Source: a virus
Lineage: Duplodnaviria > Heunggongvirae > Uroviricota > Caudoviricetes
DNA: 42,486 bases
IMG/VR virus record: IMGVR_UViG_2541047683_000004
Coordinates: 1-42,486 of that record
Direction: 5' to 3' (one strand)
The notes under the pieces were generated by a model, which worked only from the letters and a program-made list of their open reading frames with translations, searched no databases and was not told the DNA's origin. Made by a program: the position numbers and the translations under genes. This document shows positions 33,445 through 37,010 of the stretch, one piece after another. Numbering within the stretch: the first letter of the stretch is position 1; every line of letters starts with the position of its first letter.

Positions 33445-33505
33445 CTTTACCTTCGCTTATCCACATAACTTATTGATTACATTGATAACTAAAAAGATCG
33501 TCGAT

Positions 33506-33850
33506 TCAGAACTCTTCGATGTTCCAGCCACCACCTGCTTTCTTTGGCTTAACCGTTACCCCGATGATTCGGAACGGATACTGATCTGCGGCGACTTTGG
33601 TTTTCACCCTGGCGTCGTCGGTCCAGAAACCTTTCACTTCGTGCAGTTCCATCTCGCCGGTGGCGAGCATCACAGCAAAATCGGGCGTATAGAACGTGTT
33701 GTCAGCTAACCGCAACTTGATACCCTCGAATCGATACCAGGCGATTTCCCCTGCACGTTTACGCTGCTCAAGGTGCTGGCAATACGCAGATTCTGTTTTG
33801 TTCATCTGGCCTGTTTTGAGTCGACCAAGAGCCTGTATCTGTTTTCTCAT
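33506..33850 (-). CDS. Small phage protein (114 aa), DUF1064-like (tentative)
   Basis: Operator copy abuts its ATG. Confidence 0.45.
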   Translation of the reverse strand: MRKQIQALGRLKTGQMNKTESAYCQHLEQRKRAGEIAWYRFEGIKLRLADNTFYTPDFAVMLATGEMELHEVKGFWTDDARVKTKVAADQYPFRIIGVTVKPKKAGGGWNIEEF

Positions 33851-33852
33851 GA

Positions 33853-33869
33853 TTTACCTCTAAGGTAAT
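33853..33869. promoter_or_regulatory. Operator-like palindrome (copy 8)
   Basis: tttacctctaaggtaat. Confidence 0.55.
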
Positions 33870-33914
33870 TAAAAACCACATAAGACACGAAATCAATAGA
33901 GTTTAGAATGTTTT

Positions 33915-33931
33915 GTTACCTGATAGGTAAT
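33915..33931. promoter_or_regulatory. Operator-like palindrome (copy 9)
   Basis: gttacctgataggtaat; with copy 8 brackets a candidate internal promoter. Confidence 0.55.
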
Positions 33932-33967
33932 TATTGAGACGTAAAAAAATGCGCTATCGCGCTGGTA

Positions 33968-34744
33968 TTACTTGATAAATCCTGCCGCCTTTCCCCGCCT
34001 GTATTCCTCCATCAGCCACTGCGCCGGTGTTATTCCCCCCAGGGTGGCGGCGTTAGGCATACACCCGAAACTTCGCCCTGGTGGATGGTAAACGTCTCTC
34101 CCTGTGTCCGGAGGCGTACTCATGGGCTCTGGCTTTGCCTGTATGCTGATCACCGGATCGGGTATCTGCTGTCCGGAAGCCACCTTTTTCGCCCAATCAT
34201 CGAGCAGCCTGCGCGCGTGTTTCTCAACCTCAATCTCGCTAAGCTGGCGCTGATACATTGCACGGCGGGTATCACATACGACCCAGTACATAACCGGATG
34301 TCGCCACGGGAATCTTTCGGGACCACCAGGATATAAACTTTTTTCCTTGCTGTACCGGTGAAACTCCGCCATCACATCGTCAATGGTGACGCCAAGAACC
34401 ATCTTGCTGTCTTTGCACCACTTGATGAATTGCCCAGGCGACGGCCAGAACGGAGATTCACTGGCGCGGGCGTGGCGCATACCAGCGTTAACCTGTTCCA
34501 TTGTTGTGATCCCATTCTCCAGAAAGGCAAGCATCCATTGCTTACGGAATTCATTAAGTTTGTTCTGCTCCCTTATGGTCGAAACGCTTGCAGGAAATGC
34601 AGCCTGTAACTGGACAAATAGTTCATTGAAAATTCTAGCAACCTGCTCCTTTTTGCCATTGCTGTCACGCCGCTCTTCATGCACAGCAACACCATGCTCA
34701 CGTAAGCGATCGTACTCATTGAGAAGTTCTGGAGTTGATTTCAT
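33968..34744 (-). CDS. Putative replication protein (258 aa)
   Basis: Downstream of and overlapping the iteron-containing initiator-like gene; GGGGTG RBS. Confidence 0.45.
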   Translation of the reverse strand: MKSTPELLNEYDRLREHGVAVHEERRDSNGKKEQVARIFNELFVQLQAAFPASVSTIREQNKLNEFRKQWMLAFLENGITTMEQVNAGMRHARASESPFWPSPGQFIKWCKDSKMVLGVTIDDVMAEFHRYSKEKSLYPGGPERFPWRHPVMYWVVCDTRRAMYQRQLSEIEVEKHARRLLDDWAKKVASGQQIPDPVISIQAKPEPMSTPPDTGRDVYHPPGRSFGCMPNAATLGGITPAQWLMEEYRRGKAAGFIK

Positions 34745-35546
34745 CCCACACCCCTTCTATCCAGTCAGTGTTATTCCAGTCAAGCTCATCGCTTTTCCCG
34801 GCGTTTTTTGATTTTCCCCTGATATGATTTACGTGCCTGGCGAATTTTTGTTCCCACTGAACCTGCGTGAACACTTTGCCCTCAGCCATCCAGTAATCCC
34901 GGAATGCAGCAAGTTCAGCAGGTGTAAATTCCGGTTCCGGCAGGGCCGTTCCCCACAGCGCAGCACGCCGTCGAAAATCCGGCGACGGATGCCAGCCATC
35001 GGTCATCGGAAATTTCCCGATGGGTTCACTCAGGCCATCCAGAAATTCAGGTTCAGCCACCTGCAACGGCATACCGTTCGCTTCACTGGTCGGAGCACCA
35101 TCGCGCACGTGCGCTATGTGTGGGGTTTTATATATATCTTCCTCTTCCTCTTCCTCTGGTAACTCCTTTTGTAACGCTGTTGGCGTTACTTTTTGCGTTA
35201 CTCGTTTTCGATGCTCTGCCACTCTTCTATTCGTAAGTGCACGTTTTTTCGATGATTCTCCATTATGTCGCTCAAAGTTTGGAAGGATTAGTTTGCCGTC
35301 ATGATAAGCAAGCCATCCGACGCTAATGAGGGCGTCAGCAAATCCTGTAATAAAAGCGAGTCTATCAAGTACTCCTTTTGTAACGCTGCCAGCGTTACCG
35401 TCTATTGTTTGCTGGTCAGCCCATGCCCATATACGAACCAGCTTTCCAAGAACAGCATCTGGATCAATACCCAGAATTTCTGCTATCTGAAAAATTTCAG
35501 GTTTATCAGGAGTGATAACTTCAACCTTAATCCAGCTGCTTGCCAT
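34716..35546 (-). CDS. Putative replication initiator with acidic linker; contains iteron-like repeats
   Basis: Start at ATG 35546 with GAGGGGAA RBS; poly-Glu linker; two palindromic repeats inside the gene. Confidence 0.5.
   Translation of the reverse strand: MASSWIKVEVITPDKPEIFQIAEILGIDPDAVLGKLVRIWAWADQQTIDGNAGSVTKGVLDRLAFITGFADALISVGWLAYHDGKLILPNFERHNGESSKKRALTNRRVAEHRKRVTQKVTPTALQKELPEEEEEEDIYKTPHIAHVRDGAPTSEANGMPLQVAEPEFLDGLSEPIGKFPMTDGWHPSPDFRRRAALWGTALPEPEFTPAELAAFRDYWMAEGKVFTQVQWEQKFARHVNHIRGKSKNAGKSDELDWNNTDWIEGVWDEINSRTSQ
35162..35398. repeat. Iteron-like repeats (candidate origin of replication)
   Basis: ACTCCTTTTGTAACGCTG at 35162-35179 and 35371-35388, each followed by palindromic partner GCGTTAC. 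Confidence 0.5.
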
Positions 35547-35721
35547 AGGTTTCCCCTCTTGCACTCTTTAGTGCACAAGCAAATTCATTACGATGGCGGT
35601 TGGCGCTATTCATTGCACATTCAACACATGTTCCGTTCAGAACATACCTTTCAGAGAGATGGCCGTGACGGCACCGCTTTCCTGTGAAATAGCGATTTAA
35701 CCCGGCTTTTGCGGCCTCCAT
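35527..35721 (-). CDS. Small Cys/His-rich protein (64 aa), possible zinc-binding regulator
   Basis: ATG 35721; motif CRHGH ... CVEC. Confidence 0.35.
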   Translation of the reverse strand: MEAAKAGLNRYFTGKRCRHGHLSERYVLNGTCVECAMNSANRHRNEFACALKSARGETYGKQLD

Positions 35722-35837
35722 TCTGGTTACTATCTTCAATTTTTCCGCCCCTTTTTGTTATTGATATTGGCTATTTTGCACAATTGGAAAATTTGATCAA
35801 CCAGATTTGGTTTTTTATTACCTTTGAGGTGCGAATA

Positions 35838-35865
35838 GATATGAAAAGACCGCCAGGTGGCGGTC
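35838..35865 (-). terminator. Intrinsic terminator after Cro-like gene
   Basis: gaccgcc-acct-ggcggtc followed on minus strand by T-run. Confidence 0.55.
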
Positions 35866-35887
35866 TACAGAGGGTTGTGGCTGAATA

Positions 35888-36118
35888 TCATGAGTAGAAG
35901 AAGTATGCCAGTTCTGCTTTTGAGCGCAGCCATTGTCTTGTTTTACAGGCTTTAAAAAGCCCATTCATCAATACCTTACCTGGCATTTTGCGCTTACCTG
36001 TTAAGTGAGTCTGGATATAGTGACTCGTCGTTCCGGCTTCCTGTGCGAAGGCTTCACGCTCATCCGGAGTAAGTGCAAGCCAGTGCTTTTTGAAATCGAA
36101 ATGTCCGTTATCGCTCAT
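35888..36118 (-). CDS. Cro-like small HTH regulator (76 aa)
   Basis: Divergent from repressor gene across operator-rich region; helix-turn-helix-like segment EAFAQEAGTTSHYIQ. Confidence 0.5.
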   Translation of the reverse strand: MSDNGHFDFKKHWLALTPDEREAFAQEAGTTSHYIQTHLTGKRKMPGKVLMNGLFKACKTRQWLRSKAELAYFFYS

Positions 36119-36130
36119 AGCTATTGCCTG

Positions 36131-36154
36131 ATATTTATTTCAGATAATAAATAT
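36131..36154. promoter_or_regulatory. AT-rich inverted repeat ATATTTATT-N6-AATAAATAT in immunity region
   Basis: 9-bp perfect arms, 13 nt upstream of Cro-like ATG. Confidence 0.45.
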
Positions 36155-36201
36155 TCACCCATAAGGTAACAAAAATCAAGGATAGTTACCTATGGGGTGC
36201 A

Positions 36202-36218
36202 TTTACCTGTTGGGTAAT
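36202..36218. promoter_or_regulatory. Operator-like palindrome (copy 10) in immunity region
   Basis: tttacctgttgggtaat; nearby inverse arrangement GGTAAC...GTTACC at 36165-36190. Confidence 0.55.
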
Positions 36219-36272
36219 ATTGCTTTAAATTGAATCATCTACTGATTCATATATGAGGCGATTTTCCAGAAA

Positions 36273-36857
36273 ATGAAAAGTATCCAGGACGTCCGCAGGC
36301 AAAATCTCAACGACTTGATCGACCGTGAATTCAATGGTGTTCAGACGCGGATGGCAGAAAAACTTGGAACTCAGGCAAATCTGGTAAACCGCTGGGCTCT
36401 TGGCAAGAAGGTTATCGGCGACCAGGTTGCGCGAAAAATTGAAGCTGCCGCCAATAAACCCCGTAACTGGCTTGATATCGATCGCTCGCTTTCTCAGGAA
36501 GGTTTTCAGCCTGTCGGCCCAAGCGACATTGGTCAGCTGGCAGCTCACAACCTGGAACGCTGGATGAGCGAAAGCCGCGACCTTTCAACACAGGGAAAAC
36601 TTCACCGCGCATCCGGCGTAGCCCAGGTGACAATCAGCCGCCTGTTAAACAATGAGGTCAGCGTTTCCATTTCCACCCTGGAGAATGTTGCATCCGCATT
36701 CGGGCGTCACGGCTATGAATTACTGATTCACCCGCACGACCCTGCGACCATCAACTATGATCGCTCGCGCTACGCATTGTTACCCGAAACCGAGAAAGCA
36801 AAGATCGAAAGTTACATTGAATTTGTCATCAACCAGAACGAAAAAAACAAACAATAA
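36273..36857 (+). CDS. Phage repressor candidate with two tandem XRE-type HTH domains
   Basis: Two helix-turn-helix-like segments (residues about 20-45 and 105-130); monocistronic between operator clusters; terminator downstream. Confidence 0.6.
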   Translation: MKSIQDVRRQNLNDLIDREFNGVQTRMAEKLGTQANLVNRWALGKKVIGDQVARKIEAAANKPRNWLDIDRSLSQEGFQPVGPSDIGQLAAHNLERWMSESRDLSTQGKLHRASGVAQVTISRLLNNEVSVSISTLENVASAFGRHGYELLIHPHDPATINYDRSRYALLPETEKAKIESYIEFVINQNEKNKQ

Positions 36858-36878
36858 AACCATATTTTTCAGTAAGTA

Positions 36879-36902
36879 AGCCGCCTTATGGCGGCTTTTT
36901 TA
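36879..36902 (+). terminator. Intrinsic terminator after repressor gene
   Basis: agccgcc-ttat-ggcggct followed by T6. Confidence 0.65.
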
Positions 36903-36913
36903 TTGCCTATTCG

Positions 36914-36930
36914 ATTACCTAACGGGTAAT
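36914..36930. promoter_or_regulatory. Operator-like palindrome (copy 11)
   Basis: attacctaacgggtaat upstream of -35. Confidence 0.6.
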
Positions 36931-36948
36931 TTTTTTAACTCATATCTA

Positions 36949-36977
36949 TTGACATCAAACCATATACGCATAATTAT
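36949..36977 (+). promoter_or_regulatory. Early promoter TTGACA-N16-TAATTA
   Basis: Consensus -35 with near-consensus -10, flanked by two operator palindromes. Confidence 0.55.
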
Positions 36978-36992
36978 TACCTAAACGGTAAC
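36976..36992. promoter_or_regulatory. Operator-like palindrome (copy 12) overlapping -10/+1
   Basis: attacctaaacggtaac. Confidence 0.6.
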
Positions 36993-37010
36993 AGAACGAG
37001 GTAACAAGTT

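Follow-up and report, generated by a model that had tools for sequence, protein, structure and literature searches.

A candidate replication origin of phased palindromic half-sites within the initiator gene of a phiV10-like temperate phage

Why should the coding sequence of a phage replication initiator carry the same stretch of DNA twice? The question is raised by IMG/VR virus record IMGVR_UViG_2541047683_000004, analysed here over its full 42,486 nucleotides (nt; hereafter the window), which is a prophage of a phiV10/TL-2011b-like temperate podovirus (Uetakevirus-type). An initial annotation of this DNA had described iteron-like palindromic repeats inside the initiator gene, beside a run of glutamate codons, and had proposed a candidate origin in the arrangement known from lambda O. 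The best explanation for the locus is probably a phage replication origin of the lambda style, situated within the initiator gene, in an initiator family for which no sequence similarity to lambda O was detected. The principal elements are as follows, with the strand where one applies.

34716-35546, minus strand: replication initiator gene (phrog_2509), with a C-terminal Pfam DnaT domain
33968-34744, minus strand: lambda-P-family helicase loader gene (PF06992, E 1.7e-55; phrog_109 'P-like helicase loader', E 2.3e-89)
35380-35398: site B, a perfect 19-bp (9-1-9) palindrome GTAACGCTG-C-CAGCGTTAC, with half-sites at 35380-35386 and 35392-35398
35371-35379: ACTCCTTTT of repeat copy 2, comprising an A-rich spacer and degenerate third half-site position
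35159-35201: site A cluster, with four half-sites spaced by exactly 12 bp, running > > < < along the plus strand
35171-35189: site A core palindrome, GTAACGC-TGTTG-GCGTTAC

Exactly two copies of the 18-mer ACTCCTTTTGTAACGCTG exist in the window, at 35162-35179 and 35371-35388 and thus 209 bp apart, as had been annotated, and none of 100 dinucleotide-preserving shuffles contained two matches, even with 3 mismatches allowed. The repeat can be extended to 28 nt with 25/28 identity. Both copies contain the palindrome GTAACGC-N5-GCGTTAC; the inverted partner GCGTTAC reported after each copy and the 19-bp palindrome formed by the second were recovered as described. The description as iteron-like needs amendment, for while the palindromes are real, the repeat unit is a 7-nt half-site and not an 18-nt iteron. 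The search for additional half-sites that the initial annotation had suggested located six, and only six, in the initiator gene at no more than 1 mismatch. Two of these form site B (35380 and 35392), and four lie at site A (GTAACtC at 35159, GTAACGC at 35171, and GCGTTAC at 35183 and 35195), where those at 35159 and 35195 extend the core palindrome at 12-bp phasing. Within the repeat, ACTCCTTTT comprises a spacer and one further, degenerate half-site; at its position other homologs have a true GCGTTAC at +11/12 (e.g., L087 and L091, with half-sites at positions 161 and 172 of the coding sequence, CDS). On the coding strand copy A reads GTA ACG CCA ACA GCG TTA CAA AAG GAG, encoding VTPTALQKE, and copy B reads GGT AAC GCT GGC AGC GTT ACA AAA GGA, encoding GNAGSVTKG. 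Since the two copies are in different frames and encode different peptides, the thing that is repeated is the DNA and not the protein. Within copy B, site B itself encodes G-N-A-G-S-V-T, a peptide that the structural model places in a loop of the winged-helix domain.

Close relatives bear the mark of selection on the DNA at both sites. The set compared comprised 48 unique 396-nt N-terminal CDS from 80 IMG/VR loci, BUCT554, and a Klebsiella phage. Third codon positions are variable at 95/106 places outside the sites versus 1/8 within the four core half-sites (Fisher p = 5.6e-6, an optimistic value given that the sequences are related and not independent). Counting all codon positions, 2/28 vary in the half-sites versus 135/317 elsewhere, while 6/10 vary in the 5-nt spacers. 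The longest invariant runs are site B (CDS 149-158 and 160-168), the right arm of site A, and the poly-Glu tract, and the core half-sites of site A are likewise retained across 69 unique CDS from close relatives. Arms that are conserved on either side of a spacer free to vary are the signature of a dimer binding site, and it is highly probable that this selection acts on the palindromes as protein-binding sites.

The N-terminal domain of the initiator belongs to a very large family, comprising 7,215 clusters at 50% identity (E <= 1e-3), and a Pfam search with its 136 N-terminal amino acids and 22 homologs gave no meaningful match at E <= 1. The distant members compared at the DNA level share 40-60% amino acid identity and reside in loci of 35-64% guanine plus cytosine (GC), one of which is on a Planctomycetes chromosome and another on a circular 41-kb phage-like plasmid from Pusillimonas. 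Even at about 40% identity these homologs retain the exact GTAACGC-N5-GCGTTAC at the same two CDS positions, ~149 and ~347-381, with extra half-sites 11-12 nt away and almost none elsewhere in the 3-5-kb loci; canonical half-sites are 28x denser within the first 450 nt of the gene than over the remainder of the loci. Adjacent half-sites are spaced by 12 nt in 215 cases and by 11 nt in 19, the remainder being multiples of these, and the 5-nt spacer of the palindromes is invariable in length. Unpaired half-sites are also found in direct orientation at 11-12-nt phasing, arranged > > > < in L089 and > < < in L091. The distances between site B and site A, which cluster at 198, 209, 220, and 231 nt, were dropped as phasing evidence, since insertions of 11-12-nt half-sites suffice to account for them. 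Many homologs read site A in the frame of site B, and the peptide N-A-x-S-V-T is then present twice; P0044 has both frame readings side by side (NAPSVTNVTPTAL). The peptide is thus conserved because the DNA site is conserved. The genes surrounding distant homologs differ (a methylase upstream in L087, other small open reading frames (ORFs) in L086, L088, and L089), and the loader is IstB/DnaC-like instead of a P-family protein, while the sites stay in the initiator gene. A plasmid search returned only two phage-like circular records, which lend autonomous replication weak support at best, and a viral scan with P0085 gave no matches.

Departures from the canonical half-site are coordinated between the two sites. 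The half-site is GTCACGC/GCGTGAC at both sites in L119, L124, L127, L131, L132, and L137, GTGACGC...GCGTAAC in L088 and L092, GTTGCGC/GCGCAAC in L126, and GTCACA/TGTGAC in L135, L144, and L145. A left-arm change of AAC to CAC (Asn to His) is matched by a synonymous change of GTT to GTG in the right arm, by which the dyad is preserved. A 7-5-7 palindrome with at most 1 mismatch is present in both regions in 99/112 unique genes, and 84 of these 99 carry the same left arm at A as at B (0/10000 permutations), a count dominated by the GTAACGC class; independent support for covariation therefore comes from the minority half-site classes and not from this count. Apparently at least three separate switches of half-site have occurred (L133, L119/L127, and L149). 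Half-site class also tracks the protein. Residue 109 of the initiator, in the basic helix that follows the winged helix, is V in 40/44 genes with GTAAC and K or Q in 10/10 genes with GTCAC (counts made without phylogenetic correction), and it is the best protein column separating the two classes when residue 51, itself encoded by the site, is left aside; residues 105 and 112 follow. This association is suggestive of the initiator as the binder. A more specific proposal can be advanced tentatively, as a possibility somewhat short of an even call: that an initiator family without a Pfam model carries a bipartite origin of 7-5-7 palindromes in its own CDS, that the site dictates N-A-x-S-V-T in whichever frame it is read, and that the third base of the half-site, A or C, pairs with residue 109 in the basic helix.

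In the initiator gene site A spans CDS 346-388 and the linker CDS 390-410, which puts the site at the boundary between DNA-binding domain and linker. Three further elements are found beyond it.

35137-35157, minus strand: 21-nt polypurine tract AGAGGAAGAGGAAGAGGAAGA on the coding strand (pyrimidines on the plus strand), encoding the poly-Glu linker and adjoining site A
35127-35137: pure A/T run TTTATATATAT of 11 nt, directly after the polypurine tract
35103-35114: perfect 12-bp palindrome GCGCACGTGCGC, 12 bp beyond the A/T run

The GAA/GAG run that had been noticed next to the first repeat is this polypurine tract, which encodes EEEEEE. An analysis of AT skew, likewise suggested at the outset, gave values of -0.54 to -0.65 over 35120-35240, at a local GC of 0.42. 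Across the initiator family the last half-site is followed by a CCAGAG(A)AGAG... polypurine sequence, and in 104/112 unique homologs the start of the gene's longest purine run falls within CDS 360-460; the median length of this run is 23 nt versus 11 in shuffles. The linker peptide varies (EEEEEE, EKRREEK, REEKRRE) and the purine character is kept. When the charged linker is defined on the protein sequence, its Arg codons are AGA or AGG in 82/82 cases versus 446/1447 elsewhere in the same genes; this comparison replaced a first version in which Arg codons were counted within purine runs, which was dropped as circular. A/T runs resembling GATATAAAA come after the polypurine tract in several distant homologs. 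From their composition and placement the polypurine tract is a candidate flank of an unwinding region, and the A/T run a candidate DNA-unwinding element. The palindrome at 35103-35114 could conceivably form part of the origin. In 37/116 homologs, most of them close relatives, the 60 nt that follow the purine run contain an inverted repeat of unrelated sequence, versus 10/116 for the next 60 nt.

The polypurine tract is also a mosaic breakpoint between the N- and C-terminal halves of the initiator gene. The N-terminal half with its sites (query 407-831) is all that the gene shares with BUCT554, Klebsiella phage ST11-OXA245phi3.2, and a Rac-like prophage, while only the C-terminal half (query 102-420) is found in Actinobacillus phage vB_Apl-pPE4, at 85.7% nucleotide identity. 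The conserved tract may serve as a recombination linker between these modules. A C-run motif, CCCCC(T)TAACCCCC, which encodes PPL(T/N)PP, occurs shortly after the polypurine tract in L088, L124, L128, L129, and the Klebsiella locus L002, and the YdaU protein of E. coli K-12 has the same peptide, as DPPLNPP.

The encoded protein matches the full-length profile of phrog_2509, phage replication initiation protein, with E 2e-129 (amino acids 7-274 against profile positions 1-277). Its likely start is the ATG at 35546, preceded by the ribosome-binding-site-like AGAGGGGAAACCT; the ORF tool lists a GTG at 35564. Residues ~1-118 model as a winged helix plus a basic helix, after which come an acidic linker and, at the C-terminus, a DnaT-like domain (PF17948, E 6.5e-19; NF002770, E 1.2e-26, which is below the curated cut-off of NF002770). 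No PDB relative was found by sequence. The loader gene lies directly downstream, its start overlapping the initiator stop, and the lambda-P-like loader is the presumed partner of the C-terminal domain of the initiator.

An origin within the initiator gene is supported by the pairing of that gene with a P loader, by the selection at the DNA level, by a CDS position like that in lambda, and by the purine-rich and A+T tract. Most likely the palindromes are initiator binding sites for the start of replication, as at the lambda origin. Every computable test fits the initial proposal of a lambda O arrangement, and we infer that the initiator itself is the binder and that the locus fires replication. 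In the mechanism envisaged, the winged-helix/basic N-terminal domain would recognise the 7-bp half-site GTAACGC, and initiator dimers would bind the two 19-bp palindromes, site B at 35380-35398 and the site A core at 35171-35189. Further protomers could bind the extra half-sites of site A cooperatively; because these are phased at 12 bp, they would all be presented to the same side of the helix. At site A the nucleoprotein complex so formed may strain the polypurine tract (35137-35157) and A/T run (35127-35137), which would open, and site B, 209 bp or ~20 turns away, may assist by looping to site A. The DnaT-like C-terminal domain would then recruit the lambda-P-like loader carrying host DnaB.

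Over 81% of bases 1-25000 the window matches TL-2011b at 96.7%, with matches to phiV10 and relatives as well, and the initiator gene is 97.6-99.1% identical to those of phages Phi05_2388 B, vB_EcoP_ZX5, HEMP4, and TL-2011b. Neighbouring genes are the following.

36273-36857, plus strand: repressor gene
35888-36118, minus strand: cro/cII-like gene
35527-35739, minus strand: ORF of 70 amino acids, phrog_1081 (function unknown), with Cys/His residues (CRHGH...CVEC)
33506-33850, minus strand: DUF1064 gene

The cro/cII-like gene, the 70-residue ORF, the initiator, the loader, and the DUF1064 gene share one minus-strand early operon context. The 3' end of the 70-residue ORF overlaps the annotated start of the initiator, and BUCT554, the Klebsiella phage, and pE16EC1016-8 have all kept the ORF upstream of their initiators. 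Between it and the cro-like gene lies a strong hairpin resembling an intrinsic terminator (AGACCGCCACCTGGCGGTCT followed by TTTCAT, 35847-35866, minus strand), which occupies the place of tR1 in lambda. The window also contains an unrelated palindrome, TTACC-N5-GGTAA, in 16 copies at no more than 1 mismatch, mostly intergenic, where 0.77 would be expected (0/100 shuffles).

TTACC-N5-GGTAA copies: 2950, 5922, 7043, 7136, 8188, 10211, 10797, 26416, 29483, 29501, 33854, 33916, 36155, 36203, 36915, 36977

Pairs of these flank the immunity region, with 36155/36203 between the cro-like and repressor genes, 36915/36977 just after the repressor gene, and 33854/33916 in the AT-rich gap after the P-like loader gene. 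The copies are probably operators, whether for the phage repressor/Cro or for some other regulator whose regulon is dispersed.

Could the palindromes of the initiator gene be operators instead? The initiator, or another phage protein, might use them for autoregulation (by roadblock or by looping between A and B) or to hold down copy number through handcuffing, with initiation taking place elsewhere. Dimeric palindromes 209 bp apart, about 20 helical turns, would suit repression loops; autoregulation is common among iteron initiators such as those of RepA/pi-type plasmids; and there are AT-richer intergenic regions nearby, at 33860-33950 (GC 0.25-0.35) and 35750-35840 (GC 0.30). Those regions, however, carry TTACC-N5-GGTAA sites of the immunity-operator type and no GTAACGC sites, and a pure operator would leave unexplained the family-wide conservation of the polypurine/A-T tract at site A. 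This account is unlikely, and regulation is in any case compatible with origin function. Somewhat less likely again is a binder different from the initiator, whether a host factor or a phage product such as the 70-residue Cys/His protein (35527-35739), whose gene is conserved directly upstream in close relatives. Against such a binder stand the distant homologs, in which the neighbours differ and the sites remain, and the variation of half-site class between phages, which would not be expected of one conserved host factor and which tracks an initiator residue.

Two further readings look to the structure or the coding of the DNA. As single-stranded DNA each palindrome folds at -7.4 to -8.8 kcal/mol (z of about -4 versus shuffles), the covariation of the arms keeps pairing intact, and the C-terminal domain is DnaT-like, all of which would agree with hairpins or cruciforms in single-stranded or supercoiled DNA, for instance a primosome-assembly or single-strand initiation signal for the DnaT-like domain, in place of duplex binding sites. 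Yet the arms are conserved in sequence far beyond the needs of pairing, the stems reach only 7-8 bp, the spacer never departs from 5 nt, and L089 and L091 have unpaired direct half-sites at 11-12-nt phasing; hairpin function is accordingly improbable. Least probable of all, to the point of being very hard to sustain, is that the DNA has no function of its own and that the similarity reflects a repeated peptide (NAxSVT) or a recent internal duplication or gene conversion. Although many homologs have N-A-x-S-V-T at both positions, this is contradicted by the different frames and peptides seen here, by the two readings in P0044, and by a codon choice (GGT AAC GC. ... AGC GTT AC.) that is fixed even in loci of 55-64% GC, with synonymous sites frozen. 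An RNA element was rejected, as an Rfam scan found nothing in 33500-37000 and only chance-level matches elsewhere in the window. An antisense terminator at site A, which is terminator-like on the plus strand, was rejected as well: no gene is transcribed in that direction, the T-run is a variable spacer among the homologs, and site B has no T-run.

Several observations weigh against an origin at this locus or temper the case for it. Only two full palindromes are present, 209 bp apart, with no tandem array. At 11 nt the A/T run is short, and the A+T content of the region is only moderate (GC ~0.42). Some family members (L120, L129, L136, L142, and L171) have no clear site pair. The correlation at residue 109 derives from few independent lineages, and relatedness among the compared sequences makes the statistics in general optimistic. 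Whole-window GC and AT skew proved uninformative as an origin marker, since the change of sign near 36 kb coincides with the divergent transcription there, and no origin was located by skew. Finally, no description of an origin for this initiator family was found in the literature, whose coverage was incomplete, DopC/DopE being the only related case.

If an origin within the initiator gene is the correct reading, the origin and the initiator recognition site would be defined for the phiV10/epsilon15-like (Uetakevirus) temperate phages, and likewise for the initiator family as a whole, which is very large, uncharacterised, and widespread among prophages. The locus offers a natural example of a protein-binding DNA site that overrides coding constraints, a 19-bp site being carried in two frames and a compensating synonymous change keeping its dyad. 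Residue 109 is a candidate specificity determinant, which could be of use in the annotation of prophage origins, in the construction of phage-derived replicons, and in the prediction of incompatibility or cross-activation between co-resident prophages. Should the recognition code be true, sequence could directly reveal origin specificity, and perhaps permit its redesign, in thousands of temperate phages ranging from Enterobacteria to Planctomycetes.

Comparison with other replication systems places the locus in context. The DopC/DopE pair has been described as a domesticated O/P-like pair, in which the N-terminus of DopC is an HTH_36 domain (PF13730) related to O, and no iteron-like sequences were found in the dopC locus by its authors (Brezellec et al., 2017; PMC5509034). 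The initiator studied here resembles DopC in joining an N-terminal DNA-binding domain to a C-terminal DnaT-type domain and in having a lambda-P-family partner, but its N-terminal domain belongs to another family without a Pfam model (no PF13730) and its gene contains conserved site clusters. With the iteron plasmid origins (RepA/pi/TrfA) the locus has in common a modelled winged-helix fold, short units in helical phase (11-12 bp and multiples), and an adjacent candidate unwinding tract; unlike their 17-22-bp direct iterons, the units here are 7-bp half-sites in mixed orientation within coding sequence. Among prophages, a Rac-like element of E. coli 442/2 (MN652886, L003) has a 'ydaU' with the N-terminal domain described here, the same half-sites, and an extra 12-nt half-site insertion. 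In K-12 MG1655, whose Rac prophage is the one in which oriJ was defined, YdaU (L085, NC_000913 1421119-1421976) is a DUF1376 protein and the 8-kb region has none of the half-sites. Two prophages that are both called Rac thus carry non-homologous 'ydaU' initiators, and Rac oriJ was dropped as a validation on account of the K-12 protein and region.

The closest parallel in arrangement is the lambda origin. Homology of the initiator to lambda O was rejected, with no match to PF04492 (Phage_rep_O) and an hhalign probability of 0.2 for the family alignment against lambda O. Differences in layout are also plain: lambda has four tandem ~19-bp iterons ~20-24 bp apart, whereas here two 19-bp dyads stand 209 bp apart together with phased 7-bp half-sites, one of the sites (B) lies within the coding region of the DNA-binding domain, the C-terminal domain is DnaT-like, and the stretch of pure A/T is not as long as that of lambda. 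Close relatives among the lambdoid phages differ in their iterons, and in this respect too the present half-site, which is kept across very distant phages, is unlike theirs. The likenesses are nevertheless extensive. The lambda iterons lie at O CDS 349-433 and site A at CDS 346-388, both at the junction of DNA-binding domain and linker; in both cases the sites are 19 bp with dyad symmetry, a purine/A-rich run (ACAAAAGAAAAAAGAAAAGA in lambda) follows them on the coding strand with the same polarity, a P-family loader gene is directly downstream, and the N-terminal domain and its sites travel as one mosaic module. The principle of an origin within the initiator gene, already known from lambda, would be extended here and not overturned.

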